DNA of 64,000 nucleotides from an uncultured bacterium (GTDB taxonomy: Bacteria > B130-G9), in assembly GCA_965372715.1 (NCBI GenBank), contig CBDVDH010000014.1, positions 4,298-68,297 of the forward strand, read 5' to 3'. A program made the position numbers and the translations under genes. Below, one piece after another: positions 2,991-32,732 of this stretch (its first letter is position 1; each line of letters begins with the position of its first letter). The notes under the pieces were generated by a model. It was not told the DNA's origin. It did not search any database and worked only from the letters and a program-made list of their open reading frames with translations.

Positions 2991-3047
2991 CAACCGCAAC
3001 GACTTATGACCCAGCCTCTTCTAGCCTGCCATCGCCCAAGCCGCTGG

Positions 3048-4226: not shown

Positions 4227-5941
4227 CCTCGGCCTTCGGTCTTGCTCAGCAGAAAATCGCCGATGATGAGGTCATCGATGCCGGTCGTGTAGAAGCACCG
4301 CAGCGCGTCCCTTGGCGTGCACACAATCGGCTCTCCTTCTATGCTGAACGACGTGTTTAGGACGACGGGCACGCCGGTCAGCTTCTCGAATTCGGCGATC
4401 AGATTGTAATAGAGCGGGTCCCTGTCGTTCTCAACGCTGTGAACGCGGCCCATGCCGTCAACGTGAGTAACCGACGGGATAACGTCCCGTTTCTCGGGCA
4501 CCACCTTATAGGCGAGCAGCATGAACGGCGAGGGGTATGAGAAATCGAAATACTCGGACACCTTCTCCGCGAGAATCGACAGCCCAAACGGCCTAAACGA
4601 CTTGCGGCGCTTGACAAGCTCGTTCACGACGTCTTTCATCTTGGGGTCGCGTGGGTCTGCCAAGATGCTCCGCTTGCCGAGTGCGTGGGGGCCAAACTCC
4701 ATCCTGCCCTGAAACCACCCGACGATGCGCCCTTGGGACACCAGCCTCGCGGCCTCAGCGGAGGGGTCCTTGACCTCCCGATACGGGACCTTCGAGAGCT
4801 TCAGGAACGCCTCGATCTCGTCGTGGCTGTATTCGGGGCCCCAGAAGGCGTGGTCCATCACGAAGTCGCGCTTGTTGCCCAGAAGACCGTTGTGGATGTA
4901 GAACGCCGCTCCAACCGCCGCCCCCGCGTCGTTGGCCGCCGGCTGGATGAACGTCTCCTCAAACCCGGTCTGCTTCAAGAGCATCCCGTTGGCGACGGAG
5001 TTAAGCGCTACGCCGCCGTTGAGGCAGATGTTCCTGCTGCCTGTTACCTTGTGCAGATAGTTGGCCATGTGAATCATGGCGTCCTCGAGCCGGCGCTGAC
5101 CCCCCCGGGCGACCTCCGCGTGGCGGTCGGTTACCTCTTGGCCCGGCTTTCTGTCGGCGCCAAATGTCAGGAGAAACTTGTCGGAGTAGTAAGGAATCTC
5201 GCCATACTGATAATTGAAGAACGACATGTCCATCTCAAATTCGCCGTCGGGGGGCGGCAGCCTTATCACGCGCTTGAACTCGTTGTAGTACTTGTCGGTC
5301 TTCCCATACGACGACAGGCCCATCACCTCGTGTTCGTCGGAGTTGCGGTTGAACCCGAGGAACATCGTCAGCGTGGCGTAGAACGCACCCAGCGAGAACG
5401 GAAAGTATATCTCCTTGAACTTGCTGATCTTGTTCCCGCGACCAGATGCAAGCAGCGTCGTCGTCCACTCGCCGATGCCATCTGCACTCAGTATCGCCGC
5501 CTCATCGAAGGGCGAAATCGTGAAACAGCTGTATGCGTGGGCGATGTGGTGCTCGACGAACTGGAACTTGAACCGCGCTTGCTGGGGCTCGTAGCCCGGC
5601 AGCTTCTTGAGATAGGACTTCGCGACCATCATCGACGGTATGCGGCTGGAGCACTCCGCCCGACCACGAAAGAAAGCGAGAGTCCTGGGGAAATGCCTCG
5701 CCAGGTGGAATATCTTGCGGTGTATATTCAGCCAGGGATTGACGCAGAAGCCGACCCAGGCCACGTCGTTGATCGAGGCGCCGATCTCGTTGAGGCAGTA
5801 GCTGATTGCGCCGTACGGAAAGCCGCCATCGCGCTTCTTGCGTGTGAATCGTTCTTCCTCCGCCGCCGCCATGAGCTTGCCATCGACGAGCACACAGGCC
5901 GCAGAATCGTGCTGGAACGCAGTAATCCCGAGTATGATCAT
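4223..5941 (-). CDS. Carbamoyltransferase of the NodU/CmcH family.
   Basis: The N-terminus MIILGITAFQHDSAACVLVDGKL..AAEEERFTRKK matches the Kae1/YgjD-like carbamoyltransferase N-domain. The length of 572 aa is typical and the GGVALNSVANG block is present. Confidence 0.85.
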   Translation of the reverse strand: MIILGITAFQHDSAACVLVDGKLMAAAEEERFTRKKRDGGFPYGAISYCLNEIGASINDVAWVGFCVNPWLNIHRKIFHLARHFPRTLAFFRGRAECSSRIPSMMVAKSYLKKLPGYEPQQARFKFQFVEHHIAHAYSCFTISPFDEAAILSADGIGEWTTTLLASGRGNKISKFKEIYFPFSLGAFYATLTMFLGFNRNSDEHEVMGLSSYGKTDKYYNEFKRVIRLPPPDGEFEMDMSFFNYQYGEIPYYSDKFLLTFGADRKPGQEVTDRHAEVARGGQRRLEDAMIHMANYLHKVTGSRNICLNGGVALNSVANGMLLKQTGFEETFIQPAANDAGAAVGAAFYIHNGLLGNKRDFVMDHAFWGPEYSHDEIEAFLKLSKVPYREVKDPSAEAARLVSQGRIVGWFQGRMEFGPHALGKRSILADPRDPKMKDVVNELVKRRKSFRPFGLSILAEKVSEYFDFSYPSPFMLLAYKVVPEKRDVIPSVTHVDGMGRVHSVENDRDPLYYNLIAEFEKLTGVPVVLNTSFSIEGEPIVCTPRDALRCFYTTGIDDLIIGDFLLSKTEGRG

Positions 5942-5956
5942 TGTGTAATTGTATCC

Positions 5957-8374
5957 TTACTTGCCGCGCTTGCCCAGCTTATCAAGTATATCACCCAACG
6001 TCTTGTTGCTCGCAATGGAAACCAGCTCGCGGTTGTCTATCAGGAGCAAGATCGCCCCTCCTATCCCAAGCTCCTCGCAGAGCTTAGCGTCCGACATCAG
6101 CTTCGATTGCACCGTCTCGGAAGTGGATAGCTGCTTTATCTTTGTTGGCTCAAAGCCCGCCTCCTCAATCGGCTCTTCCCAGTAGGAATTGTCAGGCTTC
6201 TTACCGCGAATCAAAATGTATTTGTCGAACTTGGGCCCGTCCTGCATTAGCATTGCGACTTGCCGCTGCGCCTCCTGAAGCTCCGAAAGCCCCGTCGCAG
6301 CTAGAAGCTCGCCCTTATCGTCCCGGTAGAGTATATGATGCACCTCAAAAGCATAGGAAAGCTTGCCCTCGTCGCGCTGCTTGATCATCTCGCCCAATCC
6401 CTCAAGGCCGGCCTTCGTGGTCGCAGAGAAAAACACGTCAACCTTGCCTCGTATCACGGGCCGAGAAGCCACGATCGTCGCGCCCGACAGCTCGGGCCGG
6501 AACACGAGTCTGTCCTTAACTTTCTTGAAGGCCGACTTCAGGCGCACGAAATTGCGAGCTCTTTTGGCCTCCGTCCCGAATATATATCCCGGCAAGTGCT
6601 CGATCTCGTAAGTCTCAAGCAGCCGCTTGCCCTCCTCGGTTGACGCCTCAACCTTCTCGACCTCAAGGCCGGGCATCATGACCTTGGTCGAGTTGATTAT
6701 TTTGTCCTCGTTAGTGGCGACGGAGTTCTCGTCGTAAACCACCCAAACGGGAACCTTGACCGCCTCGTCATAGACGCACTTGGCGTCCTTCGTGCCAGGA
6801 TTCACGCACCGCGCTATCATGCCTTCTTTCTGCGGGCAGTCGTAATCGTGCAGGCATTTCGGAAGGTCCTTGCAGATCGGTATCTGCTCTGCTCGCGGCC
6901 CCAAGACCGTGCAGATGCCTCGCAAGAGCAGCGTCCTGTCGAGGCGCTCGTTGAACCGGCGATTGTTGATGTATAGCGTGGGCGATGCGTTCACCCTGAG
7001 CCTGGCGACCCTCGCGGCCATGCTCTTCAGCTCGCGCGCAGGATAGCTGCTGTTCAGGCAAGCCGAAAGGGACTCCGTATCGATGCCGACGCTCGAGGCG
7101 CACTCCTCCCAGCTGGTCCCCGCGACCGACGAATCTCGGCACGCCACGTAAGACAGAAACTTATCCTGCTGCGTCCTGAGAATGCAGACGCGCCGCACGT
7201 CCTCCTCGACCTCGTCCTCGCCGTAAAGCGAGTCAAGCTCGCCGTCGTCGTTGAACCGCACGATGTAATAGAGGTGAGGATCGATCGTGTCGCCGAGCGC
7301 TTTCTTGAGCTCAAATAGCGTCCGAAACGCGGGTTTGGAGTGCGGGCAGAGGCTCATCATGTATAAGTCGAGCCGCACGGTTGGCGTGATGGCCCCGCCG
7401 TCCCTGAGCTTTGTGAACTCGGTCACGAGCGCTGCCACATCAGCAGCGTCTGGGACCTCGGCGCCAAGCGGAATCTCCTCGATTGTGATGCGCTCGGTGG
7501 CATCCTCAACTGCGGGCTTAATCCTCGCCAAAAGCAAGTTCTGGCCCTGATAGTCGAAGTTGACAAGATGAGTTTGTCCGACATCGAAAGAGCGCTTCGT
7601 TGAGGTCCGCCGGCCTGAGTTGAAGACCACATCGATTCCGGGGACTTCCTTTGCGAGCTTCTCCGATTCCTCTTCGCCCAGGTGCGAGAGAAGAACCACG
7701 AAATCAACTTTGTCCTTCTGCTCCCTCAATAGCTTTGCGACGGACTTCTGTGGATCGAGCACAGAAAGGCCCTCGAAGTGCTCCCAGTAGTCGCCCAGCG
7801 CGACCTCGGGGGTGCAGACGCCCGTGATCAGCACAGATTGCGTGCCGACTTTCTTTGCGATGTATGGCGAAACGAACGGCTTGCCCGCCTCGGTCTGAAC
7901 GTTGCAGGACACGAAGACGAGGTCGAGCTCCTTCTCTGCCCACTTGATGGCGCCCTGGCCGAAAGCGAACTCGTCATCGCCGAGGCAGACAGCGTCGCAT
8001 TTCATCTGAGCCATCGCCTTCAGCGCGACGAACGTTCGCTGCTTGTCAAGCTCGTCCCCCTGCGTGTATTCATCGTAAATGCCCTTTGCGAAGCAACCGC
8101 CGCCGTCCAGAACAAGCAGATTGCTAAACTCCTCGCGCAGAGCCCTGATCTGATGCGCACGACGCGCGACACCACCCAGCGGCTCGACAGGGCAGTTGCA
8201 GGGCTCGATCATCGCATGCGTCTCACCGGTATAGACAATCGCTATCTCCGTGGACACAGTTGAGGCACTGGCCTGTTGCTCCTGCGCCTGAACAGTCCCC
8301 AGGAAAGAGACGTGGCCTAGGATGAGTGCCAAAGCGATGATCAATAAACGCCGCCAATACATAGGTTTCCTCAA
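5957..8374 (-). CDS. Secreted multidomain protein with an N-terminal metallophosphoesterase/5'-nucleotidase-like domain fused to DsbA/thioredoxin-like modules.
   Basis: Signal peptide MRKPMYWRRLLIIALALILG. The block IAIVYTGETHAMIEPCNCP...LLSHLG is phosphoesterase-like. LYMMSLCPHS and the C-terminal GAILLLIDNRELVSIASNKTLGDILDKL resemble DsbA-type thiol oxidoreductase domains. Confidence 0.55.
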   Translation of the reverse strand: MRKPMYWRRLLIIALALILGHVSFLGTVQAQEQQASASTVSTEIAIVYTGETHAMIEPCNCPVEPLGGVARRAHQIRALREEFSNLLVLDGGGCFAKGIYDEYTQGDELDKQRTFVALKAMAQMKCDAVCLGDDEFAFGQGAIKWAEKELDLVFVSCNVQTEAGKPFVSPYIAKKVGTQSVLITGVCTPEVALGDYWEHFEGLSVLDPQKSVAKLLREQKDKVDFVVLLSHLGEEESEKLAKEVPGIDVVFNSGRRTSTKRSFDVGQTHLVNFDYQGQNLLLARIKPAVEDATERITIEEIPLGAEVPDAADVAALVTEFTKLRDGGAITPTVRLDLYMMSLCPHSKPAFRTLFELKKALGDTIDPHLYYIVRFNDDGELDSLYGEDEVEEDVRRVCILRTQQDKFLSYVACRDSSVAGTSWEECASSVGIDTESLSACLNSSYPARELKSMAARVARLRVNASPTLYINNRRFNERLDRTLLLRGICTVLGPRAEQIPICKDLPKCLHDYDCPQKEGMIARCVNPGTKDAKCVYDEAVKVPVWVVYDENSVATNEDKIINSTKVMMPGLEVEKVEASTEEGKRLLETYEIEHLPGYIFGTEAKRARNFVRLKSAFKKVKDRLVFRPELSGATIVASRPVIRGKVDVFFSATTKAGLEGLGEMIKQRDEGKLSYAFEVHHILYRDDKGELLAATGLSELQEAQRQVAMLMQDGPKFDKYILIRGKKPDNSYWEEPIEEAGFEPTKIKQLSTSETVQSKLMSDAKLCEELGIGGAILLLIDNRELVSIASNKTLGDILDKLGKRGK

Positions 8375-14798: not shown

Positions 14799-16370
14799 AT
14801 GCGATGGGAGTCGTTTCAGAGCGACATTATGAGAACCTTTGTCTTCAGCATCAGAAGCTTGAAAGCTGGCCGACCGGTCCTCTGGCTCCTGCCGGCCTTT
14901 GCCCTCTCGCATCTTGCGGCGTATCTGTTGGGAATCGGCTTCTGTCGCGAGCCCGTCTGGGGGGCGGTGCAGCTGGTCAGTCCTGAACTTCTGAGACATA
15001 ACCTGGCGGAGAGCCTCTTCTATTTACACAGCCAGCCACCTCTATTCAACCTGTTCTTGGGGATAGTTCTCAAGCTCGCCTCTAGGCACTCCAGATTGAT
15101 CTTTTACGCCATTTATCTAGTCTGCGGCCTGTCACTCTACTGCTCTCTCTTCCTGCTTCAGGTGAGACTGGGTGTAAAAAGGTGGCTCGCCTTTGCACTA
15201 GCCACATGGTTCATAATGAGCCCCACGTTTATCTGGCATCAGCACGACGTGAGCTATCCGATAGTATTGGCAACCGTTCTTCTGGTTTCTGCTCTCTTGT
15301 TGCATCAGTACTTGGTGAGGCATGGTCGCGCGGTCGCCTTCTGCTTTTTCTTCTGTCTCTTTCTTCTAGCAGGCATTCGATCACTCTATCATTTGTCGTA
15401 TTTCGTTCTGGTAGTTATAGCACTGCTTGCGCCACGTTGGCCCAACCGGAAGAGAATAGTGCTGGCGGCCCTCGTGCCGTTCCTCTTGATCCTGTCGATT
15501 TACGTCAAGAATTTCGTCCTATTTGGCAAGTTCACGGCGAGCTCCCTGCTGGGGATGAACGTCTCTGTCGTGGCGACCGGCAGTGTCACAACAGAAGAGC
15601 GTCAACGATTGGTGCGCGAGGGGAAATTGTCCGAGTTGTCATTGATTGCGCGATTCTCAGATCTGGAGAGGTATCCTAAGAGATTTCAAGAGCTGAAAGG
15701 GTACGAGGGTATCCCTGTTCTGACGCAGGCCAGAAAGCCGAGCGGTGCTCTCAATCTTAATCATCTGGCCTACATCGCGGTTTCAGACCAATACCTAAGA
15801 GATTCTCTTTACATAGTGAAGAATCGCCCTAAGGCCTATGTCAAAGGCCTGATAAAGTCCTGGATGCTCTACCTCTTTCCGGGTAGAATCATGATGCCGC
15901 CTCCCTCTTTCTCAGAATATGACAAGGCCCGTCTCTATTCTAATGTTTTTCAGTCATTTTTCTTCTGCAAGATACCCTACGAGTTCTCCCAGACAGGCCT
16001 TCGCCCCTTCACCTTTATCCCCTCCTACCGGTTTCATCTCTTCTTGTTTTTGGGGCTACCGCTCCTGTTCATATACGGACTGACACTGTCTCTGAGAAAG
16101 CGTTCCGTAGCAAAAGACCGCGACCCAGCGATACTGGACCGCAGTCAGAGAATCGTCGTCGCTTACTTGTGCTTGACCATAGCCTACGTAGCAATCGTGG
16201 GGAACGCACTTGAGACAGGCGAGAACATGCGCTTTAGATTCCAGACGGATCCGTTCTACGTGGTGTTGCTGGGCCTCTTCATACAGTTCTTTCTGATACC
16301 TCGTCTGGCCAGGGCACTGAATAGAATACGTCGGTCTGATGCCGCCCGAAGGCCCGAACAACTGCAATGA
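14799..16370 (+). CDS. Polytopic integral membrane protein, possibly a GT-C-fold glycosyltransferase. The start may be the internal Met at 14829.
   Basis: At least ten hydrophobic helices with loop regions rich in R/K. The function is not recognisable from the sequence. Confidence 0.45.
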   Translation: MRWESFQSDIMRTFVFSIRSLKAGRPVLWLLPAFALSHLAAYLLGIGFCREPVWGAVQLVSPELLRHNLAESLFYLHSQPPLFNLFLGIVLKLASRHSRLIFYAIYLVCGLSLYCSLFLLQVRLGVKRWLAFALATWFIMSPTFIWHQHDVSYPIVLATVLLVSALLLHQYLVRHGRAVAFCFFFCLFLLAGIRSLYHLSYFVLVVIALLAPRWPNRKRIVLAALVPFLLILSIYVKNFVLFGKFTASSLLGMNVSVVATGSVTTEERQRLVREGKLSELSLIARFSDLERYPKRFQELKGYEGIPVLTQARKPSGALNLNHLAYIAVSDQYLRDSLYIVKNRPKAYVKGLIKSWMLYLFPGRIMMPPPSFSEYDKARLYSNVFQSFFFCKIPYEFSQTGLRPFTFIPSYRFHLFLFLGLPLLFIYGLTLSLRKRSVAKDRDPAILDRSQRIVVAYLCLTIAYVAIVGNALETGENMRFRFQTDPFYVVLLGLFIQFFLIPRLARALNRIRRSDAARRPEQLQ

Positions 16371-16750: not shown

Positions 16751-16925
16751 GATAGGCTCCTGTATACACGTGTTATGCTCTTCAAGAGAGCACGGGCAAG
16801 GAGAAATCGGCACTAGATGGGACAGTTGGGGAATTGGGTGTAACCCGCAGATGATCAGTCGATCCCCAACACACAAACGGTAGAGGGGCGCCTAAACGGC
16901 TGCTGGATATTGGTTGGGGGGCGGC
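16751..16925. repeat. Left copy of an approximately 170-bp direct repeat (about 80% identical to 20506-20675) bounding the low-GC islet.
   Basis: Shared core aggagaaatcggcactaRatggGRcagttgKggaattgggtgtaacccgcagatgatcagYcg..ccYcaacacacaaacgg, plus similar 40 bp upstream (tgtatRcac..ttatgc). Confidence 0.75.
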
Positions 16926-17097
16926 TCTTGTGGCGCCGTGAGAGCTTCCCCGCTTCGTCGGGATGCCCAGCTCAATTGCCGCAAACGTCCGGCAGGTACT
17001 ATGCGGTGGACTCTAGTTGCATTCATGAAATGGCCACTGTAGGGCTTAATGGGGAAGTTCTTCTTTCAAAGAGATTCTCTGAGCAATGAACGGATAA

Positions 17098-17712
17098 TTG
17101 CTCCGTATTGAGAGGTTGAACAAGACTTTCGACAGCGTGAAGGCCCTGTCCGGCTTTCTATGCTCGGTAGGAGAGGGCGAGATCATATTCAACGGCCAGA
17201 AGACCAATGGCGCAAGTCCGGCGAAAAACGTCGCTCGCGGCGTCACGTTCGCGCCTCAAGGCAATCGCGTCTTCGACGAATTGACTGTGATGGAGAAACT
17301 CGAGATCGGCGGCTTTCAACTCCCGTCCAAGGAGCTAAAGGGCCGTATCGGGCAGGTGCTTGAGATGTTTCCTGCCCTGAAAGAGCGAACACGGCGAGAG
17401 GCGGGGAGGCTGAGCGGCGGCGAGCAGCAGATGCTGGCTCTGGCACGGGCATTGGTTCCGAAGCCGAAACTGCTTATGCTCGACGAGCCGTCTCTCGGCT
17501 TGGCTCCGAATCTTCTGGACGATGTGTTCGAGACGATAGGCCAAATCAACCGTGAAACAGGCGTGGCCGTTCTTATTGTAGAGCAGAAGGTGCGTGAGAT
17601 TCTGAAGGTCTGCCAGCGCGTCTATTCGCTCAAGCTCGGTAAAGTCTCTTTCTCTGGCCCGCCGGATGAGCTGCAACAGGATAAGGAGACTCTTAAGCGG
17701 CTGTTTCTATAG
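17098..17712 (+). pseudogene. LivF-like branched-chain amino acid ABC transporter ATP-binding protein with an in-frame loss of the Walker A region and a disrupted start.
   Basis: Signature LSGGEQQMLALARAL, Walker B LLMLDEPSLGLAP and the H-loop are present. The sequence jumps from SVGEGEI directly to IFNGQKT, so the GxxGxGKT P-loop (about 28 aa) is missing. The upstream ATG runs into TAA after 3 codons. No permease or partner genes are nearby. Confidence 0.6.
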
Positions 17713-17730
17713 GCCTTCGGACGGCAGCTA

Positions 17731-18009
17731 ATGGAGGTCGCCCAACTCATGCCGAATCAGCAGTGGAGGCACGCTCGGGCGACCAATCCTGTTGAATCGC
17801 CCTTCGCGGGCGTTCGGTTGCGAACTGACGCGGCGACACGCTTCAAGAAGGTCGAGAATTCGACCGCTGTCTTATGGAAGATGTTGATGATAGTCGAGAG
17901 GAGCTTCAAAGGCGTGAAGGCCCCAGAACTTATGAAACGGGCCTCTGAAGGGGTAATCTATCTCGACGGGAGAGAAAAAGAGCCTGACAAAGAGGAACTA
18001 GCTGCCTAA
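17731..18009 (+). pseudogene. C-terminal fragment of an IS256/Mutator-family transposase.
   Basis: TNPVESPFAGVRLRTDAATRFKKVENSTAVLWKMLMIVERSF matches the conserved C-terminal TN.IESlN..iRrRTrvv.rFpnee.alrL block of this family; only about 90 aa remain. Confidence 0.5.
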
Positions 18010-18124
18010 CTTGAATTTACACACTTATTGAAGGGACCTCTGATAACGATTTAGTTAAGCTAACGTTTCAAATAACCGGCGGTAACAGAACGTAGTGGAA
18101 TTGCCGTCCATGTTGATTTGATGG

Positions 18125-19360
18125 TTAGGTATTGGTTTCGTCAAACTTCTTGATTATTTCACGCGCTGTTTTTCCAACATCTATTGACCAAAAAGATCCT
18201 GAGCCACCAGATAGCTTTGTAGAAACATCTACCGTCTCATCAAACTGCGCAAATGGTTCCACAACTTCAATACAGGCCGGTGTCCCGTGTGACTCTAACG
18301 CTCTCAAACACATTGCTACGACATATTTCGCAGACCCGCCTTTTCTTTCAAAAGCTTTTGCATATCTGGGTAATGATAAGGTCTTGATCAGAATTGTTTC
18401 AATTTCTGTTCGTTCATGTGAAGAAATAGACCTTACTATATAAGCCTTAAATAGGTCATCTAAATATTCCGACCTCCTACCCGTGTTAGTCAGAGCCTTA
18501 ATCAATGATTGAAACGACACATCTTGATTACGCTGCCCTAATTCTTCTATTGCTAATTTTGCAATCTTATCACTCGGGTCATTCAGCATGTTTATTGTTA
18601 TTTCGGTGGCTTCCGCTGTTTCGTAAAACAGGAGGCCTTTAAGGGCTTGATATCTAACATTTCCGACCAAGTCATTTGAGGCGATTACAAGGGAATTAAG
18701 CAACCTTGTGTCATTAGGAGAATCTTTGGAAAATTCAGATAGGCCCCATGTTGCTATCTCTCTAATTAGATCGTCTTCTTCTACAATTGCCATTGATATC
18801 AATTCAGATAGGATTACTGTGTAACGAGCATGAATCAGAGCAAATAATGAAATAGCTCGGACAGCCTGATTTTTAGAGTAAATCGCTCCAAGAAGCTTTT
18901 GAAGAGTTGTTTTCGGAATAACATTGTTTTCAATATAATCGTAGATTGGCAACAGTATCTCAATCAAATCATAATGTACTATTTGGTTGCCATTCACTAC
19001 ATCGTCGCCAAATGGAATATACTGGTCTTCTCCTGCAAGATCTACCCATGCTGCGTCGCTTGAGGGAAGGCTTTTCAAAAGTTCAATTGATGCTGATACA
19101 ATTGCATCGCTTTTATCGGTGATAAACTCCAATGAGATAGGGACCGCCATAGCCAGATTTTTAGACTCCTGTATCGCGGATATACGCACCGACTCATCAT
19201 TGCTCAGAAGTCGGTCGCGTTTCTTCTTGTTCCGTACCCATCCAAAGTCCCCTTCGCCGGTACCAGTTATGTATTGTGGAATTTCATGTGAAACTGCATC
19301 TGGCAGAACACGCCTTAATATATTCTGCAGGCCACTATCATACTCAGCATCTGATTCCAT
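18125..19360 (-). CDS. HEAT-like (PBS-lyase type) alpha-helical repeat protein.
   Basis: Recurrent D-x-s-x-VR-x-x-A-x-x-x-L units (NDESVRISAIQESKNL, NQAVRAISLFALIHA, DDLIREIATWGLSEF, NDLVGNVRYQALKGLLFY, NDPSDKIAKLAIEELGQ). The 5' end overlaps the TIR gene by 46 nt. GC is low, about 40%. Confidence 0.65.
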   Translation of the reverse strand: MESDAEYDSGLQNILRRVLPDAVSHEIPQYITGTGEGDFGWVRNKKKRDRLLSNDESVRISAIQESKNLAMAVPISLEFITDKSDAIVSASIELLKSLPSSDAAWVDLAGEDQYIPFGDDVVNGNQIVHYDLIEILLPIYDYIENNVIPKTTLQKLLGAIYSKNQAVRAISLFALIHARYTVILSELISMAIVEEDDLIREIATWGLSEFSKDSPNDTRLLNSLVIASNDLVGNVRYQALKGLLFYETAEATEITINMLNDPSDKIAKLAIEELGQRNQDVSFQSLIKALTNTGRRSEYLDDLFKAYIVRSISSHERTEIETILIKTLSLPRYAKAFERKGGSAKYVVAMCLRALESHGTPACIEVVEPFAQFDETVDVSTKLSGGSGSFWSIDVGKTAREIIKKFDETNT

Positions 19361-19692
19361 ACGTAGCCAATAGGTATCCTGTAAAAAAGCGGTACGCGAC
19401 AGTCTTGTGCAATTATTGGCAGGACTTTGATATCTCTGGCTTTAAGCTGCTGATTCATCGCTAACTCAAGCTCCTTCTGAACCCAAGATGATTCAACAGA
19501 GGCAGGAGTTAAGACAGCAATGAGATAATGCATTTCCTCGATTGCTAATGCAATTCTCTTTAAAAGGGAGTCGCCAACCAAGAGTTCGGCTTCATCAAGC
19601 CAAACACGAACCCCACGGACAACTAGATCTCGTGCCAGTTTTCGTGCGAAAGGCTTATCTAAAGAAGTGTGGCTGATAAAGACGGACGACAT
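19315..19692 (-). CDS. Stand-alone TIR-domain protein.
   Basis: N-terminal FISHTSLDKPFARKLARDL..GVRVWLDE (betaA-alphaA of TIR). The SSWVQKELELA block carries the conserved Glu that is catalytic in TIR NADases. The protein is 125 aa and its 3' end overlaps the HEAT-repeat gene. Confidence 0.75.
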   Translation of the reverse strand: MSSVFISHTSLDKPFARKLARDLVVRGVRVWLDEAELLVGDSLLKRIALAIEEMHYLIAVLTPASVESSWVQKELELAMNQQLKARDIKVLPIIAQDCRVPLFYRIPIGYVWNQMLSMIVACRIY

Positions 19693-20006
19693 ACATTCCC
19701 CAATAACTCTACAGTTTTATCTGTGATCATTTCATACCTAAAATAATTAGATGGGCCCGCATAAGATGCAGGCTTCTTCGTTTCTGCCCCCATAAGACGC
19801 CTTTGGATATCCTGCCAATGCCGCGATAAGCCTTGCTGTTTGAGAGATTTGTTGTTTGTCCTTCCATTTAGCTCGGTGGTTTATGCGGGTCAGCATAAGA
19901 ACATCCTTCTCATAGTCCGTCGAGCTTACCCCAAAAGGTGTGGAAATTAGGTTAGGCGGTGTTTACCTTGGTTGGGAAGTAAACAACCTAACATGAAAGA
20001 AAGGAG

Positions 20007-20357
20007 AACACCGCCATGAGCAAGAAGAGCACAGTCTGTGATTGGAAGTCAAGCCCGTGTCGGGAAGGCCTTGAGGCGTGGATTCGGGGGCGGATTCAAA
20101 GGTGCTTTCAGGACGTGTTGGAAGAGGACGTGAAGGAGTTTTTGGGTAGGACGAAACACGAGCGGTGAGAGCATATCGACAGCGCTGTTTGAAGTCGCAA
20201 CCGGTATGGTAAGCCTCGGAATGTAACGTTGAGTTGCGGGACGATAACGGTTCGACATCCAGTAGTGGCTGACCTTTAGCAGGATTCCGAGAGTCTGCTT
20301 CTGCCGTTCTTTGAGCATCGAGCAAAGGAAGGGAGTGAACTAGGGAAAACACGCCAT
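20007..20357 (+). pseudogene. N-terminal fragment of an IS256-family transposase, frameshifted.
   Basis: MSKKSTVCDW..LEAWIRGRIQRCFQDVLEEDVKEFLGRTKHER stops, then continues in another frame as GYGKPRNVTLSCGTITVRHP..LLPFFEHRAKEGSEL. These match the hallmark EFLG..YER and NGY..R.l.T..G.i.l.vPR blocks of IS256 transposases. Confidence 0.6.
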
Positions 20358-20505
20358 CACACCTGACAACGATCACGACGTCGTTCGACTCGGTAGACCA
20401 TTGTGTTACGGCTTGGGTGTTGCCTGACTTCGCCACTCTTCGCTTCCGCCATGATCGCGCAAGAATAGGAGGATGGGAACGTCAGCCTGATGGTCTTTTT
20501 CGGTG

Positions 20506-20675
20506 TGGATATTTGTATGCACTTATTATGCAGTTCACACAATCACGGAACAGGAGAAATCGGCACTAAATGGGGCAGTTGTGGAATTGGGTGTAACCCG
20601 CAGATGATCAGCCGTTCCTCAACACACAAACGGCGGAAAGGCGGCTGTGGGGCTCCTAAATAGTGGTCGGGGCGG
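20506..20675. repeat. Right copy of the approximately 170-bp direct repeat. It abuts and overlaps by about 13 nt the 3' end of tRNA-Pro.
   Basis: See 16751-16925. Both copies end in a tggtYgggg-gcgg stretch, which in this copy is the 3' terminus of tRNA-Pro. Confidence 0.75.
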
Positions 20676-20739
20676 GCGGATTTGAACCGCCGACCCCCGG
20701 TTCCCAAAACCGGTGCGCTACCGGGCTGCGCTACGCCCC
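20663..20739 (-). tRNA. tRNA-Pro (anticodon TGG).
   Basis: Reverse complement reads CGGGGCG-TA-GCGC-AGCCCGGTA-GCGC-A-CCGGT-TTTGGGA-ACCGG-GGGTC-GGCGG-TTCAAAT-CCGCC-CGCCCCG-A-CCA. The cloverleaf folds with 7/4/5/5-bp stems, U8, G37, TTCAAAT T-loop and an encoded CCA. Confidence 0.9.
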
Positions 20740-20779
20740 GGAAAGAGTGGATGAAGCCTGCCAGGTCAAGCGACCTGTG

Positions 20780-21685
20780 TCAGAAGGTGTAGGCCAGAGA
20801 AAACACGACGCCGGTCAGCTTGTCGTCGAAGACCGGGGCCTTCTTTGCCTTCTCCTCATCTGCCTTCGACCTCTGCAACCACCAGCCGACCTTGAACTCG
20901 AGCGGCGCCTCTTTGCAGACATAGGCCAGGCCTAGCTCGGTCTTGAAGCTCTTGAGCCTTCCAGAAAAGCAGAATGAGTCTTCGTTATCCTCAACGCCCG
21001 GGGTCTCATAGCGAAATCGCCAGTCGCTGGCATATTTGATGTTCATGTTAGGTAACATCATGCCAGTGGCCCACGCGTAGAACCCGGAGTACGATGGTGA
21101 CTCCAAGGCAAGGCCATACAGGAACCCGTGCATGCGGTTCCTTTCTTCGTGCCTCATATCGTATTCGTGAACTCCCACCGGGACGTCGAAGCCTCCGTCG
21201 TATTCTGTCCAAACCCCCTGGCCGCGCCGTTCGAAATTGTAATACTTCTGCCACTTGTAGCCAAAAAGCAGAGAGGCGTATCTAAAGTAGGGAGTCAGTC
21301 GCAAAACGATTTCAATATCCTCTCGTTTGACCTCAATTGTCCCGTTTTCGTCGGTCTCGTACCAGCCTTCATACCTGCTGTTTCTTAGGTGATAGTCGCC
21401 ATCGAACTTGCCGACTAAGTATTGGGCGCCAATGCCGATGTGGTCCTTTGCGAACGAGACCTCCATAAACGGGCCGAAGGGGCCAACTTGGGAGCTCATG
21501 TCGTATTCGCCTGTGATGTTCTTGTGCCACACCTCGCTGTTCTCGAAGTCCCAATGGCCATAAAAGCCCTTTAGCCCTACCTTGAACTTTATGGCTTTTT
21601 CGGCCTCTTCTTCTTCAGCCAGTGCAACGGCTGTGAACAGGGCGGTAATCAACAACAGAACAATCACGATCGAAATGCGCTTCAT
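20780..21685 (-). CDS. Outer-membrane beta-barrel (porin-like) protein.
   Basis: Signal peptide [23 protein letters not shown]. There are alternating aromatic/hydrophilic strands rich in Y/W/G and a C-terminal ...SLAYTF ending in Phe. Confidence 0.6.
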
Positions 21686-22425
21686 GCCTCTCTCCTCTCA
21701 AAAAATGCGATTAGGGGTCTTTACAATTGTGCGTCAAGATACTGGTCGGCATTGATCGAGTCAAGAGTTTTGAGGAGGAGTTTCGGCTCGCCGTCCGTCG
21801 AGTCTGCGATAAGGCGGAAACGGGAGAAAAGGAAAAGTAGACTTCGCCATAGTAGCCGTGGCTACGTCGGCTGAAAAGGTCTCGTGCGGCAATCGCACCG
21901 AGCGAGGGGCTCAGACGTGGGAGCTTCTGGCCAGCTCGGCGGCCACTTGCACACAAAGGGGACATTCCTTCTGCGAACTCATCGCCTTCGCCGCCCGCCT
22001 CCCTTCTCAACATGCACGCTGAACACATACGAGGCTGGAGCATGGAGTCAATGCAATTGTTGCCGACTGCTCAATCGCGCTGAAACGTGATGAGAAAACG
22101 CCAGGGCAGTCGTCCACCATCCGGAATCGCACCCCTTCACTCGGCGCACTTGACTTTGAGCTGCCGCAATTGCATTCTGTTTGACCGATTGATAGATTCG
22201 TTCTGGCCGGTGCGTGGCCGATTTCAGGGCTCTGAGATGTATCTTTACATTGCTGGGATTGCTGTTGGGCTTGTAGGTCTGTTTTGGGGCTTTTACGCTT
22301 GTCAGGTCAAGGCTTTTCCGACCAACGTTGTGGGCGGAGTCGTGTCAATTGGCTGCCTTTTGCTGACAATTGTGAGCGTAGTGCTGCTTTGCGTGCCGGG
22401 CTTTTTTGATTAGGAGACAGGTTGT

Positions 22426-26868: not shown

Positions 26869-27010
26869 AAACGTGAATCGCCTCGGGGATTTGAGGAGCG
26901 CGCACAGCGATCGGTAGCTGGATTAGTCTCCGCCCGTTGGAAAACCGGAGGCGCCGGGCACCGAGGTTAGACAGACCGGCGGCTTGAGCTGCCGCAAAGA
27001 ACTTATCAAT

Positions 27011-27095
27011 GCCGAGATGGTGGAACTTGGTAGACACGCTGTCTTGAGGGGGCAGTGGGCGAGAGCCTGTGGGGGTTCGAGTCCCCCTCTCGGCA
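27011..27095 (+). tRNA. tRNA-Leu (anticodon GAG), class II with a long variable arm. CCA is not encoded.
   Basis: GCCGAGA-TG-GTG-GAACTTGGTA-GAC-ACG-CTGTC-TTGAGGG-GGCAG-long variable arm-GGGGG-TTCGAGT-CCCCC-TCTCGGC-A. All stems pair, with one G-U wobble. Confidence 0.9.
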
Positions 27096-27128
27096 TTACC
27101 CCCTCCTATCCCGGCAATTGCGCCGCAA

Positions 27129-27818
27129 CTACGAAATCCTGCACACACAACCGCAGGACCGCCCAGCGCCGGCGCCCGTCACCGCCCAGGCCAAGTTCCG
27201 CGAGCAAAAGAGGCTATGGGAGCGGAGGCTCTCCGCCCGTTGTTGTCGTGGGCACCCGTGCGTGTATTCCTTCGTGACCGTGCTCCAGTTTGAGTCATAT
27301 TCTTGAATGACGTCATCGCCGTCGTAAAAGAACTTACGCGTGCCGGATGAATCCGTCAAGCTGAGGCGCTTGCTGTCGGGGCCGTAGGTCATTGACTGGA
27401 TTGAGGCCATCCCCTCGGTGACGGATGTCAGCCTATCAAATGCGTCATACGCATAGCTGCGTGTTACGCCGCCCGTCGTCTTGCCAGCTATGTTTCCATT
27501 GTCATCGTGCGTGTAGCTGGTGCCGATGGTGCCTTCGGTCGATTGCGTCAGCCCATCTGCGGCGTTGTAGATATAGGACACGGTGGCGTCAGAGCTGCGC
27601 GTCCAGAGCGTCCTGTTGCCGTTATCGTCATACGTGAACGTGTCGGTATTGCCGGCGGGATACTCGACCTCGGTCAGCTGCCCCTCTGCGTCGTAGGTGT
27701 ATTCCGTCTCGCCGACGTTGAACTCGTCCTTCTCGGTGACCTGCCCGCAGGCGTCGAACGTGTATTCGATGCTCGACACCGTCGTCCCGTCGGACTTCAG
27801 GTTGTCAATCGCCCACAT
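27129..27818 (-). pseudogene. Truncated orphan Rhs/YD-repeat fragment (YD repeats only), ending abruptly next to tRNA-Leu.
   Basis: YD-repeat units (YTYDAEGQLTEV, YTYDDNGNRT, YAYDAFDRLTSV, FFYDGDDVIQEY) run up to KEYTHG and then diverge into non-homologous sequence. Nt 27297-27440 is about 93% identical to 29283-29426. Confidence 0.7.
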
Positions 27819-27824
27819 ACGGCA

Positions 27825-28127
27825 CTATTCCTGACGCATGGCACGTCGCACCTTGACCCACATAACCAGTATATGGCCGAATACAACGAGCATTACGACT
27901 ATCGCAAATATATGCCAACCTCGATGGCCTTCTCTAGACGAGACGAGCACACCCGACCATCCTAATGTCGCTGAAACAATCGCCAGATACCATGCCCACT
28001 TGCGTTTGGGCCCTGAGAAGAAGCGTATTCGCTCCCTTAGGTCCATGCGAACGGTTGTAGCAATGAGAAATATCACGGTGGCGCAGCCCACAATGTCCAA
28101 TAAAATACTAGCCCAGAAACTCAGCAT
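27825..28127 (-). CDS. Small integral membrane protein; candidate immunity protein for the 28265..29773 toxin tip.
   Basis: Three predicted TM helices (LLDIVGCATVIFLIATTV, WYLAIVSATLGWSGVLV, IFAIVVMLVVFGHILVMWV). It lies immediately downstream of an Rhs C-terminal cassette on the same strand. Confidence 0.4.
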   Translation of the reverse strand: MLSFWASILLDIVGCATVIFLIATTVRMDLRERIRFFSGPKRKWAWYLAIVSATLGWSGVLVSSREGHRGWHIFAIVVMLVVFGHILVMWVKVRRAMRQE

Positions 28128-28264
28128 TGCTCAAATCCTCCCGACTGCCGATGCAGCTGACAAATCAAATCCTTCCCTAACCGTGGGCCATGCAGAGGGG
28201 ACGCCAACGATTGCCCCTCTCTGCATTGCCGCGGCGGATTCCTCTATTCCCTCAAATGTGACCC

Positions 28265-29773
28265 CTAGAGCAGCACGGGCCCCACAGATCTGTGCTGCCC
28301 AAATGGTTCCGCGAGCCCGCCAAAGTCCTTACTTCCTTGCTTGGGATGGCCTGACCAATCCTCAATACAGCTGCCCGTACTGGAACCGCTGGGGTCTGTC
28401 AACCCGGCAGGTCGGCCACCGGTGACGAGACGGCCGCCCGCTTCAAGTCCTATGTTGTCGACCTCTCGCTGTAAGCCAGCCATATCTGCTTCCAAACCTG
28501 CCATCACACCGCTAAGCGCATCCCCGAACACGTCGCCCTGGAACTGGAACGCCGTACCATACATCATCTCCCCTAACAATCCGGGAGGCATTGACATACC
28601 GCCGGCTGCTTTTATTCCACATAGGCCCGCACCGATGCCGCAAGCGCCTGCTCCGATCAAAAGCAAAGATCCTCCACTCCCCATAATCGCCAGACAGCCG
28701 CCGATACCGACCAAGCAACTGCCAGTGACGCCCCACTTATTGATCGGCTTGGAAGAACGTATGGTAATGGATATTCTGAATCCAGTGCAATACCATATCC
28801 ACACGAAAGGGAAGTAACCGCAAATGGTCCCTATATCGCCTGCATCGGCTTGAACTGAGTGACTCGCCATCCCCATCGCATCCGTGTAGTTTGCGGGAGA
28901 GTTGCCACAGTAGGCATAGAGGCTTTGGAGTGAGAAGATGGGGTCGCGGCTGAAGAAGCGGCCGAGGGATTGATTGTAGTAGCGGGCGCGGTAGAAGTAG
29001 TTGCCCATCGCGCCGTCATAGACGCGGCCGGTGAAGCGGTACATGCAGTCCACCTGCCCGGAGTGATAGGTCGTGGTGGGTTCGCCGAAGGCGTCGTAGC
29101 TGTAGGTTGTTTTGAGGGTTTCGTTCTCGTCGAGGATGTCGATTATGGAGCCCAGGCGATCTTTCATGAGGTAGTAGGTGTCGCCGGCCTGCTTCGCTGT
29201 CTTGTCCGTCATCGAGAGGGGTTCGTCTATCCAGGGGCCGTGCGTGTATTCCTTCCTAACGGTTGACCAGTTGCTGTCGTATTCTTGAATGACGTCATCG
29301 CCGTCGTAAAAGAACTTACGCGTGCCGGATGAATCCGTCAAGCTGAGGCGCTTGCTGTCGGGGCCGTAGGTCATCGACTGGATTGAGCTCATTCCCTCGG
29401 TGACGGATGTCAGCCGATCAAACGCGTCGAACGCATAGCTGCGAGTCACGCCGCCAGTCGTCTTCCCCGTCATGTTTCCGTTGTTATCGTGAGTGTAGCT
29501 GGTCCCGACAGTGCCCTCGGTCGATTGCGTAAGCTGATCGGCGGCGTTGTAGATGTAGGACACGGTAGCGTCCGAGCTGCGTGCCCACTCCGTTCTGTTG
29601 CCGTTATCGTCGAACGTGAACGTGTCCGTGTTGCCCGCCGGATACGAGACCTCGGTCAGCGGATACATACTTAGGGAGCGAAGGAGGCCACGACCGTTCC
29701 GTTGAACTTCTTGATGACGATCATGTCTGCTTTCTTGTCCCAATAGACTAGCTGCTCTCCGTCCAGATCCCAA
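28265..29773 (-). CDS. Orphan Rhs/YD-repeat C-terminal cassette with a glycine-zipper membrane-active-like tip. The N-terminal boundary is uncertain.
   Basis: YD repeats, then the Rhs core-end motif YDAFGEPTTTYHSGQVDCMYRFTGRVYDGAMGNYFYRARYYNQSLGRFFSRDPI. The variable tip contains GSCLVGIGGCLAIMGSGGSLLLIGAGACGIGAGLCGIKAAGG (GxxxG zipper) and a conserved tail MPPGLLGEMM...DWSGHP. Confidence 0.75.
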   Translation of the reverse strand: MGSGRRAASLLGQESRHDRHQEVQRNGRGLLRSLSMYPLTEVSYPAGNTDTFTFDDNGNRTEWARSSDATVSYIYNAADQLTQSTEGTVGTSYTHDNNGNMTGKTTGGVTRSYAFDAFDRLTSVTEGMSSIQSMTYGPDSKRLSLTDSSGTRKFFYDGDDVIQEYDSNWSTVRKEYTHGPWIDEPLSMTDKTAKQAGDTYYLMKDRLGSIIDILDENETLKTTYSYDAFGEPTTTYHSGQVDCMYRFTGRVYDGAMGNYFYRARYYNQSLGRFFSRDPIFSLQSLYAYCGNSPANYTDAMGMASHSVQADAGDIGTICGYFPFVWIWYCTGFRISITIRSSKPINKWGVTGSCLVGIGGCLAIMGSGGSLLLIGAGACGIGAGLCGIKAAGGMSMPPGLLGEMMYGTAFQFQGDVFGDALSGVMAGLEADMAGLQREVDNIGLEAGGRLVTGGRPAGLTDPSGSSTGSCIEDWSGHPKQGSKDFGGLAEPFGQHRSVGPVLL

Positions 29774-30996
29774 TCAAAAGGCGTGTAGCCTCGGGCGTCT
29801 TTGGGGAAATCGAGGATCATGACTGGCTCGGGCAAGGTCAGTCTCGAGAGTAGCGTCCCTTCAAGATCATAGACAGCATAGCCAGATATGGCCAATGCGT
29901 CCTCCTCCCACTCACCCTTCAGTAGCCCGAATCTTTTGTTGTCACGGGAACACCGGATTCTTAAGGCGTGCACCTCCTTCAGCACCAGTTTTTTGTGTCC
30001 GGTACCTGTTTCGAGGCGCCAGAGAGTGCAGGACCGACTTGACAGGTGTGCGCCTTCCCGCGCAACGTAGAACATGAACCTCAGGTCGGGCGTAACTCCC
30101 GAAAGACCACGCGTACCTGCAACCAGAGTCTTGCCGGCCTGGACGAAGTCCGCGGTAGCTTCAGGACCTAAGGGATTGCCTCGCACGACGCCCACAATTG
30201 GCTCGGCGTCCGGCGGCAAAACGCAGCTGTCAACCGATACTGTATCCTCTGGCAACGGAATAAGCTTTTCGAGCGAGCCATCTTCCAGAGAGTATATCGC
30301 CACGTTGATACGACTATTCGATACCTTGTCAGGGGGCGCGGAGTGAACGCGCTCGAACTGGCCAGCGCCAGGCCTCTTCGCCAGAGATCCGGGAATGTGT
30401 TTTCCTTGGATGATGACCGGAAGTACTCCTGGAGACACGCCAACCTTGTAAACACAAATCCCGACATCCTCGGTTCTGCAAAGCAAAGTATCCAACAACG
30501 CGTTCTCGCTATCCAAGCAATAGATACACGGAAGGATGGAACCACCGACATCCTCCCCCCGCAGGAGCCGCTCGCACTCGTCACCGCGAACCCCATTCAG
30601 AAGAAAAAAGCGTGGGAAACCCGCATTGGAGAAGAACGGGAAGCACGGCATCCGGCCCGACCCAGCGATTTCTTGAAACCTGTGCACCGCTACGTCTGGT
30701 CCCGACCAAAAACAGAGCTGACCAAGCTCAATGGGATGCGCGGTGTCCCCATTAACCACGATGGTCCGGGTCCTCTTGAGATACGCAACGGAAGAACTTT
30801 CAGCAACAAAGGCGAGGTCTCGAACTCCTTGGCACCGTTTCTCTTCAGCGCCGATTCTGCCTGATCCACCGAGATGGCAACCTGATATCAGAAGGGCGCA
30901 GACCACCAGAAGGGCTATGACCGGCAATCTAGGTTTGTGTCTTCCTCGGAAGACCCTGGTCCATGATCGATCTCTCTGCATACTGTTGTCTCCCAA
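29671..30996 (-). CDS. Lipoprotein of unknown function; candidate immunity or accessory protein of the upstream Rhs cassette.
   Basis: Lipobox-like LLVVCALLISGC after a basic N-terminus; there are no recognisable catalytic motifs. The annotated 5' end overlaps the start region of the 28265..29773 ORF, so one of the two starts is likely internal. Confidence 0.4.
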   Translation of the reverse strand: MGDNSMQRDRSWTRVFRGRHKPRLPVIALLVVCALLISGCHLGGSGRIGAEEKRCQGVRDLAFVAESSSVAYLKRTRTIVVNGDTAHPIELGQLCFWSGPDVAVHRFQEIAGSGRMPCFPFFSNAGFPRFFLLNGVRGDECERLLRGEDVGGSILPCIYCLDSENALLDTLLCRTEDVGICVYKVGVSPGVLPVIIQGKHIPGSLAKRPGAGQFERVHSAPPDKVSNSRINVAIYSLEDGSLEKLIPLPEDTVSVDSCVLPPDAEPIVGVVRGNPLGPEATADFVQAGKTLVAGTRGLSGVTPDLRFMFYVAREGAHLSSRSCTLWRLETGTGHKKLVLKEVHALRIRCSRDNKRFGLLKGEWEEDALAISGYAVYDLEGTLLSRLTLPEPVMILDFPKDARGYTPFDWDLDGEQLVYWDKKADMIVIKKFNGTVVASFAP

Positions 30997-31115
30997 TATT
31001 AAAAGTTTGACGCCTTCATTCCTGGTTCCCGCATGAGACCCGGCGCAAGGCCGGCAGTTTGGGTCAGCGACTCAGCATTAGGGGCATCAAATTCAATGCA
31101 ACACTCGTGATCCTG

Positions 31116-32732
31116 CTACAGTATCAGGGGGCCTTCTGGGTCAGAAGCAATCGGAGGTGGTTCGACTAGCTTTCGCTTGCCACCCCCCTGATCGGGATGA
31201 CCACTCCAGTCGTTGATGCGGCTGCATCCAGTGCGATCCCCCAAGCCAGGGTCAGTGAATCCCGGACGCTCACCGCCTGTAAGGAGCCGGGTGTTGTCGA
31301 TCTCTCGCTGCAGAAATCGCATTTGTGCCTCAATTCCTGCCATCAGGCCGCGAAACACATCCTGGCCCGGGTTGCTCTGGCCCCCTTGGAGCATCTGGCC
31401 TATCATCATCTCCCCTATCAACCCAGGAGGCATTCCCATTCCATTGCACAAGCCTTCCCCGATAGCCACGCCAATGGTGAAGGCACCTGCCGCAGCCTTA
31501 TGTGGCTTCTTCTTGATTATGCCTGTTGCGAGGTCGGATGCCCCTTTCGCGGCGCCCCGGCCCTTAGCCCAGCCATATGCCTTTCGCCAACCCCACTCGA
31601 TCGCATCTGCAACGGGATGTTTCGGGCCTGAGCAGGGAAGAATTATCCACCACCACCAAGGGCCTGGCACCGCGACTGGGATGCCACCGTCAATGTCTCC
31701 GCCTTGGCTTGACAAGTTCAGATCATTGGAGCCGATTGAGCTGCCGGCGAGCATGCCAAATGGGTCGGTGAAGTTTTGGGGGGAGTTGTTGCAGTAGGCG
31801 TAGAGGGAGGAGAGGGACATGATGGGGTCGCGGGAGAAGAAGCGCCCGAGGGATTGGTTGTAGTAGCGGGCGCGGTAGAAGTAGGCGCCCATCGCTCCGT
31901 CATAGACACGGCCAGTGAAGCGATACATGCAGTCCACCTGCCCTGAGTGATACGTCGCGGTTGGCTCGCCGAACGCGTCGTAGCTGTAAGTGGTTTTGAG
32001 GGTCTCGTTCTCGTCCAAGATATCTATTATCGAGCCGAGGCGGTCCTTCATCAGGTAGTAGGTGTCGTCCGCCTGCTTCGCCGTCTTGTCAGTCATTGAG
32101 AGAGGCTCGTCAACCCAGGGCCCGTGCGTGTATTCTTTTCTAACGGTTGACCAGTTGGAGTCATATTCCTGAATCACATCGTTTCCGTCATAGAAGAACT
32201 TACGCGTGCCGGACGAGTCTGTCAAGCTGAGGCGCTTGCTGTCAGGGCCGTAGGTCATCGACTGGAGCGTCGTTTGCCCCTGGACGACGGAGCTCATCCG
32301 GTCGAATGGGTCGTAGTTGAACGTCTTGGTGACGCCGCCGGTCGTCTCACCGGTGAGGTTCCCGTTGTTGTCGTGGGAGTAACTCGTGCCGATTGTGCCC
32401 TCGGTCGATTGTGTCAGCTGGTCGGCGGAGTTGTAGATGTAGGACACGGTGGCGTTCGAGCTGCGTGCCCACTCCGTCCTGTTGCCGTTGTTGTCATACG
32501 TGAACGTGTCGGTATTCCCCGCTGGATAGGAGACTTCGGTCAGCTGCCCCTCGGCGTCGTAGCTGTATTCCGTCTCGCCAACGTTGTACTCGTCCTTCTC
32601 GGTGACCTGCCCGCAGGCGTCGAACGTGTATTCGATGCTCGACACAGTCGTCCCGTCCGACTTCAGGTTGTCAATCGCCCACATCCGGCCTCTCCTCAGC
32701 AAGGGCGAGTGTGTCTCCAATGACTCGGCCAA
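31116..32732 (-). CDS. Orphan Rhs/YD-repeat C-terminal cassette with a Trp-rich/glycine-rich tip that differs from 28265..29773.
   Basis: It starts in YD repeats (MWAIDNLKSDGTTVSSIEYTFDACGQ...), has the core-end motif ...YFYRARYYNQSLGRFFSRDPI, then PGPWWWWIILPC...GAFTIGVAIGEGLCNGMG and the shared MPPGLIGEMM...DWSGHP tail. Confidence 0.75.
   Translation of the reverse strand: MAESLETHSPLLRRGRMWAIDNLKSDGTTVSSIEYTFDACGQVTEKDEYNVGETEYSYDAEGQLTEVSYPAGNTDTFTYDNNGNRTEWARSSNATVSYIYNSADQLTQSTEGTIGTSYSHDNNGNLTGETTGGVTKTFNYDPFDRMSSVVQGQTTLQSMTYGPDSKRLSLTDSSGTRKFFYDGNDVIQEYDSNWSTVRKEYTHGPWVDEPLSMTDKTAKQADDTYYLMKDRLGSIIDILDENETLKTTYSYDAFGEPTATYHSGQVDCMYRFTGRVYDGAMGAYFYRARYYNQSLGRFFSRDPIMSLSSLYAYCNNSPQNFTDPFGMLAGSSIGSNDLNLSSQGGDIDGGIPVAVPGPWWWWIILPCSGPKHPVADAIEWGWRKAYGWAKGRGAAKGASDLATGIIKKKPHKAAAGAFTIGVAIGEGLCNGMGMPPGLIGEMMIGQMLQGGQSNPGQDVFRGLMAGIEAQMRFLQREIDNTRLLTGGERPGFTDPGLGDRTGCSRINDWSGHPDQGGGKRKLVEPPPIASDPEGPLIL

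Follow-up and report, generated by a model that had tools for sequence, protein, structure and literature searches.

An apparent single-chain TIR–HEAT gene, interrupted by a frameshift, at a variable tRNA-Pro hotspot of an uncultured bacterium

We analyzed a 64,000-nucleotide (nt) stretch of contig CBDVDH010000014.1 from an uncultured bacterium (the window), in which two open reading frames (ORFs) on the minus strand, one matching the TIR domain and the other HEAT repeats, overlap in an islet beside a tRNA-Pro gene. An earlier note on this DNA had proposed a two-gene defense module, with a HEAT-repeat protein gating a separate TIR enzyme that cleaves nicotinamide adenine dinucleotide (an NADase). 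Are these two genes or one? Our results leave very little doubt that 18125-19692(-) encodes a single-chain TIR–HEAT protein in one gene: the supposed stand-alone TIR gene and HEAT gene are two frames of a single gene, set apart by a 1-nt frameshift. The split module was an artifact of that frameshift, and what remains is a rare mobile family of TIR–α-solenoid fusions, found twice near defense genes. When the fused, frameshifted gene and the function that we propose for it are taken as one claim, with one blended judgment for both, we consider that claim likely.

Evidence for a single TIR–HEAT gene

The gene and its parts are as follows.

18125..19692 (-): TIR–HEAT fusion gene, interrupted by a frameshift, low-GC (guanine plus cytosine) cargo; 522 amino acids (aa) after addition of one T
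19315..19692 (-): 5' ORF, 125 aa; TIR residues 1-103 followed by 22 aa out of frame, without helix αE
18125..19360 (-): 3' ORF, 411 aa; αE of the TIR domain, linker, HEAT/ARM α-solenoid of ~400 aa, and a small β-hairpin/helix cap
19383..19388 (-): T6 homopolymer, the site of the frameshift

The domain calls made earlier were borne out, since the 125-aa ORF matched Pfam TIR_2 (E 1.2e-24) and the 411-aa ORF matched HEAT_2 (E 2.8e-12) as well as generic ARM/HEAT structures. The frame junction reads CCGC-TTTTTT-ACAG, and adding one T to the run produces a single ORF of 522 aa, a length equal to that of the homologue P0002. This repaired ORF aligned with P0002 and with a second homologue, P0003, from residue 1 to the C terminus, across the junction, at 49% identity. 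When the DNA was read by eye, homology in the TIR frame stopped at ...CRVPLF. The HEAT frame read 5' of its ATG gives FLQDTYWLRMESD, and the homologues there have ...C.IP.FLQDTFYI.MDTD. With a T7 run the sequence would read ...CRVPLF-LQDTYWLRMESD..., fitting the family junction P-x-F-L-Q-D.

The extent of the TIR domain agrees with this repair. As encoded, the 125-aa ORF covers positions 1-98 of the 122 in the TIR_2 profile, and after repair positions 1-121 are covered. In the AlphaFold2 model of P0002 (predicted local distance difference test, 80.9; predicted template modeling score, 0.81), αE spans residues 115-129, past the break at residue ~103, and a complete TIR domain including αE is absent from the polypeptide as encoded in the window. 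The break is one T lost from a T7 run (now T6) and falls within the TIR domain, between its last β-strand and its last helix. Because of this frameshift the locus appears as a 125-aa "TIR gene" and a 411-aa "HEAT gene" that overlap by 46 nt, and the overlap is wrong-frame read-through. The HEAT ORF, earlier taken for a gene of its own, is a fragment of a larger gene, an outcome that the earlier note had named as refuting its reading, though in modified form, since the larger gene includes the TIR domain. From its N terminus the protein comprises ~130 aa of TIR NADase-type domain, then a linker, and lastly ~400 aa of α-solenoid.

Complete relatives of the TIR–HEAT protein are fused

We then asked about other genomes, in which the earlier note had suggested looking for a conserved overlapping pair. 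A first search with the HEAT ORF returned three proteins, namely, the identical public call and two others (522 and 526 aa) that carry TIR and HEAT in one chain. In an exhaustive HMMER scan of the same ORF against 1.84 billion representatives, six proteins had full-length homology; 112 of the 118 matches listed were partial and of the generic HEAT-repeat kind, and none of those 112 had this TIR domain. The complete full-length members all begin with the TIR domain, and the others either run off the edge of a contig or have a wrongly called start. A family profile search added P0126 (520 aa) and P0127 (540 aa), both fused. The complete homologues are therefore all single TIR–HEAT polypeptides of 520-563 aa rather than separate adjacent genes, and no split TIR/HEAT version was found among complete relatives in the ~1.8 billion representative proteins.

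Wider searches returned few relatives. A HEAT-only profile retrieved one JGI contig, which was already known, and no match in IMG/VR, the PLSDB plasmids, or the INPHARED phages. In the contig profile search, TIR-only patterns were matched, yielding 45 TIR-only relatives but not the source genome. The closest TIR-only relatives are proteins of ~291 aa with ~50% identity in the TIR domain. The family amounts to about ten protein clusters among 5.8 billion, all but one metagenomic. The TIR–HEAT family is very rare, uncharacterized, metagenomic, and always fused.

Two tandem TIR–HEAT genes occupy positions 3253-5945 of locus L050 (JGI 3300069202). The first, P0012, is short (363 aa) and ends mid-solenoid, and after it comes a complete copy that starts with GTG. 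A further protein, P0128 (384 aa; JGI 3300047160), is 64% identical to P0012 and truncated at the same place, with another ORF directly after it. The short-plus-long tandem pair may be a conserved arrangement rather than decay, and this sublineage (L050; P0128) may add a regulatory layer.

Nature of the frameshift

Besides the one missing base, the TIR–HEAT frame contains no stops and no further shifts. Of the 91 residues shared without exception by six other full-length members, the window copy keeps 83; its eight substitutions are mostly conservative, five of them being L→I, V→A, or L→V. GC content is 0.415 in the gene versus 0.564 for the window. We consider the locus, as encoded, a probable young pseudogene and a homopolymer sequencing error less likely. 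If the missing T is such an error, the gene is intact.

How do these alternatives compare? A sequencing or assembly error at the homopolymer, in an organism that carries an intact, functional 522-aa TIR–HEAT gene, would account for a lesion of a single base in a T run and for a frame otherwise so well preserved, and the contig is metagenome derived. We nevertheless think an error unlikely. The 411-aa ORF was also found, identical, in a Logan assembly and would not be callable if the run were T7, which argues against an assembler artifact; the reads behind that assembly are possibly the same ones, and to that extent the pseudogene reading is weakened. Moreover, a run of 6 or 7 Ts is short for a systematic Illumina error, and decayed genes fill the islet, namely, an ABC ATPase cut short and a pair of stop-containing IS256 remnants.

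A further alternative is programmed recoding or phase variation, in which the T run would be a slippery site adjusting the output of a toxic full-length enzyme through -1 ribosomal frameshifting, slippage in transcription, or reversible slippage in replication. Homopolymer switches occur in other defense genes, and a -1 shift at the run would give exactly the family-like junction PLF-LQD. The run itself, however, is absent at the frameshift position in four homologous loci. By inspection, the upstream frame at the run is CUU UUU UAC, so that the heptamer is out of the canonical slippery X XXY YYZ phase, and no stable RNA fold that could be stimulatory was found in the 91 nt 3' of the run (z of -0.76 versus shuffles). 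We rejected a programmed frameshift because the site is unconserved, out of phase, and without downstream structure. A T6 run is also short for efficient slippage, and recoding of any of these kinds appears very improbable.

TIR domain, solenoid, and comparison with known systems

The TIR domain has the flavodoxin-like α/β fold. Its conserved glutamate, which the earlier note had pointed out, is E74 (WVQKELE), and it aligned with the Glu of WTEYELN and WTNYELD in 7uxr and 7uwg, in a sequence alignment to the solved structures rather than a superposition. The nearest solved TIRs are of the AbTIR type (7uxr, 7uwg, and 8g83; E 6e-14 to 2e-12). The residue aligned with the WxxxE Glu of these structures, and each of the nine sequences with a TIR in the family alignment has it. 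Scanning with PADLOC, which the earlier note had suggested, gave TIR-level matches to PDC-S66 (2.2e-19), ThsB (7e-12), and, for homologues, bSEFIR (up to 4e-15), together with a weak generic HEAT match for the solenoid; no model describes the full architecture. We rejected assignment to a known PADLOC system, as the matches were just TIR level or generic HEAT.

Which described proteins does the TIR–HEAT chain resemble? In AbTIR- and BtTIR-type TIR NADases (7uwg, 7uxu, 8g83, and 7uxr), the TIR domain lies C-terminal to a coiled coil and a solenoid is not known; here, in contrast, it lies N-terminal to ~400 aa of HEAT repeats. The earlier description as SARM1-like proved to be a loose analogy. 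Unlike SARM1 and Caenorhabditis elegans TIR-1, the protein has its TIR domain at the N terminus, so that the order is reversed, and it has no SAM domains, and its TIR is nearest to the AbTIR type. The match to TIR-1 was confined to the TIR domain and no better than that to other TIRs, and SARM1 was not among the PDB sequence matches at E <= 0.01. SARM1 membership was rejected on domain order, on the missing SAM domains, and for want of a specific structural or sequence match. The likeness to Thoeris ThsB, PDC-S66, and bSEFIR is that of the TIR domain, which matches their PADLOC models. As for the partners of Thoeris, no SIR2 or SLOG ORF was found in the islet, and an adjacent SIR2 gene was found at one homologue locus (L004) only.

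The closest parallel in design is DSR2, which has an N-terminal NADase and a HEAT-repeat domain forming a cavity in which the tail-tube activator of the phage or the inhibitor DSAD1 is bound (PMC11263360). Like DSR2, a stand-alone abortive-infection design, the TIR–HEAT protein places an NAD+-cleaving-type domain at the N terminus and a HEAT region at the C terminus of one polypeptide. Unlike DSR2, it has a TIR rather than a SIR2 catalytic domain and is 522 aa rather than ~1005 aa long. Sequence homology to DSR2 was not detectable, since no window ORF and none of four homologues matched a Dsr2 model in PADLOC; only the design principle is shared. Single-protein TIR systems of Escherichia coli (TIR alone or with TPR, transmembrane, or AAA parts) protect against phage in a manner dependent on the TIR active site (PMC11350192). 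The TIR–HEAT gene is likewise one gene with TIR fused to a repeat or accessory domain, but PMC11350192 does not list a HEAT solenoid as an accessory domain, and the sequence relation is limited to the TIR domain.

A possible solenoid-gated TIR NADase and its rivals

By analogy with these systems, we propose with moderate confidence that the intact protein would be a stand-alone, single-chain, solenoid-gated TIR NADase acting in abortive infection. The HEAT solenoid would keep the TIR domain inactive and would bind a phage protein; on binding, TIR domains would self-associate into a composite active site, in which E74 would cleave NAD+, leading to its depletion and/or to products of the cyclic ADP-ribose (cADPR) type. 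The idea of functional coupling between solenoid and TIR NADase, raised in the earlier note, survives in this proposal, and the split architecture attached to it falls. More tentatively, the fused family could be a single-chain antiphage system that has not been described before and that corresponds to DSR2 with a TIR in place of SIR2. Its ~400-aa solenoid would both autoinhibit the TIR domain and sense a phage protein, a bacterial case of solenoid-gated TIR NADase control with an origin independent of SARM1. Should intact family members prove to be antiphage NADases, the DSR2-type design of an NADase plus HEAT sensor would be extended to TIR enzymes. Such members would then also offer a compact 520-aa model of the way in which TIR assembly is gated by a solenoid, which bears on the regulation of SARM1.

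The genes around the homologues bear on this proposal. Immediately 3' of P0002, at positions 2281-3174 of locus L004, lies a SIR2 protein (ThsA/LmuA/Dsr-like; 1.9e-24) cut by the contig end, and P0003 adjoins IS21 genes and lies 3.4 kb from a Shedu SduA-like gene. No partner gene was conserved across the homologue loci. An IS200-type Y1 transposase was also seen upstream in L004.

Several observations weigh against the solenoid-gated NADase: the association with defense genes comes from two informative neighborhoods only, and in L050 the neighbors of the TIR–HEAT gene are ordinary chromosomal ones; the full TIR–HEAT length is covered by no PADLOC model, and the solenoid resembles only generic ARM/HEAT structures; and the TIR domain could be a signal generator instead of a bulk depleter of NAD+. 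This last point leads to Thoeris-like signaling, the main functional rival, in which the intact protein would be a ThsB-like sensor and signal generator, making a cADPR-type messenger for a separate effector such as a ThsA-like SIR2 protein. The SIR2 protein of L004 stands directly after the TIR–HEAT gene, with ThsA as its best PADLOC match, the TIR domain itself matches ThsB models, and its closest solved relatives are AbTIR-type enzymes, which produce cADPR isomers. We give this rival little credence, however. The L004 protein is truncated, and by score LmuA and Dsr fit it equally well; neither the window nor loci L001, L050, and L059 showed a SIR2 or SLOG partner; and the cargo bounded by the insertion sequences is this gene alone.

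Could the two ORFs instead work as they stand, a truncated TIR protein as effector and a separately translated HEAT protein as regulator? Both ORFs do exist, with their 46-nt overlap, and the sequence is well preserved apart from the shift. Yet the complete homologues are all fused, and the cut before αE leaves the TIR with a 22-aa out-of-frame tail. The overlap is merely out-of-frame read-through, no recognizable Shine-Dalgarno sequence precedes the HEAT ATG (by inspection), and the public annotation (P0001; 341 aa) starts the HEAT ORF 70 codons further downstream. We regard such a split module as extremely improbable and retain the single-chain, solenoid-gated NADase as the preferred function of the intact protein.

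IS256 remnants and direct repeats at tRNA-Pro

The TIR–HEAT gene lies among the following features of the islet.

20664..20740 (-): tRNA-Pro(tgg), the anchor of the hotspot
16761..16924: direct repeat, left copy, ending in a decayed tRNA-Pro 3' end
20514..20679: direct repeat, right copy; native tRNA-Pro downstream sequence with the final 16 nt of the tRNA itself
17098..17712 (+): UrtE/LivF-like ABC ATPase remnant without the Walker A region (NCBIfam UrtE, 8.2e-46)
17731..18009 (+): C-terminal remnant A of an IS256 transposase (NCBIfam NF033543, E 1.6e-4, positions 289-335 of 338)
18004..18030: right terminal inverted repeat (IRR, candidate), IS256 remnant A
19932..19957: left terminal inverted repeat (IRL, candidate), IS256 remnant B
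20016..~20360 (+): N-terminal remnant B of an IS256 transposase (tblastn)

Much of what had been described for this islet held. The direct repeat, put earlier at ~170 bp and ~80% identity, is 166 nt long with 79% identity (E 1e-35) and has two copies only in the window; a search of the repeat region with Rfam found nothing besides the tRNA. The LivF-like ATPase, said to lack its P-loop, was matched by profiles from position 44 onward only, which fits a lost P-loop/Walker A region. Both IS256 fragments were recovered, remnant A weakly (E 1.6e-4) and remnant B by tblastn against an annotated IS256 transposase in NC_014213.1 (50% identity, E 2e-20), with three in-frame stops. The low-GC islet was confirmed in part: low GC (0.375-0.46) is present, but it is limited to positions ~18000-19900, that is, to the TIR–HEAT gene, and the remaining interval has 0.53-0.58.

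The segments 18004-18030 and 19932-19957 match in inverse orientation at 22 of 26 positions, a score reached by none of 500 shuffles. This inverted-repeat pair delimits the two IS256 remnants on their inner sides, and the TIR–HEAT gene alone makes up the 1.9-kb cargo between them. As in a composite transposon, two IS256 copies in direct orientation flank the cargo with terminal inverted repeats; both copies are truncated, their outer ends having been deleted. As in a tRNA island, the direct repeats take in the tRNA 3' end and the content differs between relatives. No integrase was found among the family-matched ORFs of at least 50 aa in 16925-20513 (the ABC remnant, the two IS256 remnants, and TIR/HEAT); the other islet ORFs lie on opposite strands or in alternative frames, and of these only the 157-aa ORF at 19963-20436(-) was scanned, with no match. 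The locus is a decayed composite-transposon-like insertion in a variable tRNA-Pro hotspot. The mobile, horizontally acquired setting suggested earlier is upheld by the inverted-repeat pair, the IS256 remnants, the low GC, and the differing cargo in relatives.

Host relatives and variable cargo of the hotspot

Judged by protein sequence, the nearest named relatives of the host are Candidatus Coatesbacteria: the PGK encoded in the window is 69-72% identical to proteins of Candidatus Coatesbacteria metagenome-assembled genomes and 89-92% identical to those of closer relatives. Three related loci (L053, L054, and L056) are syntenic with the window rightward from ~20500-20516, and their divergence from it sets in precisely at the left boundary of the right repeat. 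To the right of this break the shared order is repeat, tRNA-Pro, a 301-aa gene, gap-pgk-tpi-secG, and tRNA-Leu.

To the left, each relative bears an insertion of its own, and none has an empty site. Window positions 17447-18034, which hold the 3' piece of the ABC gene and the C-terminal IS256 remnant, are common to L053 at 81.5% identity, with homology ending at 18034; only the last 86 aa of the ABC ATPase survive in L053. The slot corresponding to the TIR–HEAT gene is taken by a 248-aa Cys-rich ORF in L053 and by a type III methyltransferase in L056. These comparisons indicate that, in this poorly known candidate phylum, a hotspot at tRNA-Pro exchanges defense-type cargo through IS256 elements.

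The L053 ORF (5409-6155; CxxC ... CPNCH) had no significant NCBIfam or PADLOC match (best NCBIfam E 0.49) and no precomputed Pfam match; it may be another cargo of the hotspot, possibly a zinc-finger or HNH-like protein. Relatives conserve the ~150 nt that follow tRNA-Pro (L053 6485-6648; L056 4245-4420), and over the central 85 nt the two window copies of the repeat are closer to each other than to the orthologous L053 copy. An attachment (att) site, a small RNA, and gene conversion are candidate explanations of this conserved downstream repeat.

Further observations concern the flanks. The 301-aa ORF beside tRNA-Pro (20780-21685) is kept in all relatives and had no Pfam or NCBIfam match, as was the case for a 523-aa hydrophobic ORF in the left flank (14799-16370). 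Upstream of the 301-aa gene, a short sequence at 21836-21879 occurs twice in the L056 hotspot (2924-2966 and 3031-3072). An 80-nt segment of the window (49564-49643) matches the L053 hotspot (6213-6292) on the opposite strand at 84% identity and may be a small dispersed repeat. tRNA-Leu(gag) marks a second variable spot, comprising 27010-32732 of the window, with RHS-repeat ORFs at 28265-32732 downstream of tRNA-Leu, versus 12659-21200 of L053, which there carries a type I restriction-modification system (HsdR/S/M) together with DUF4411, an M78 peptidase, and RhuM.

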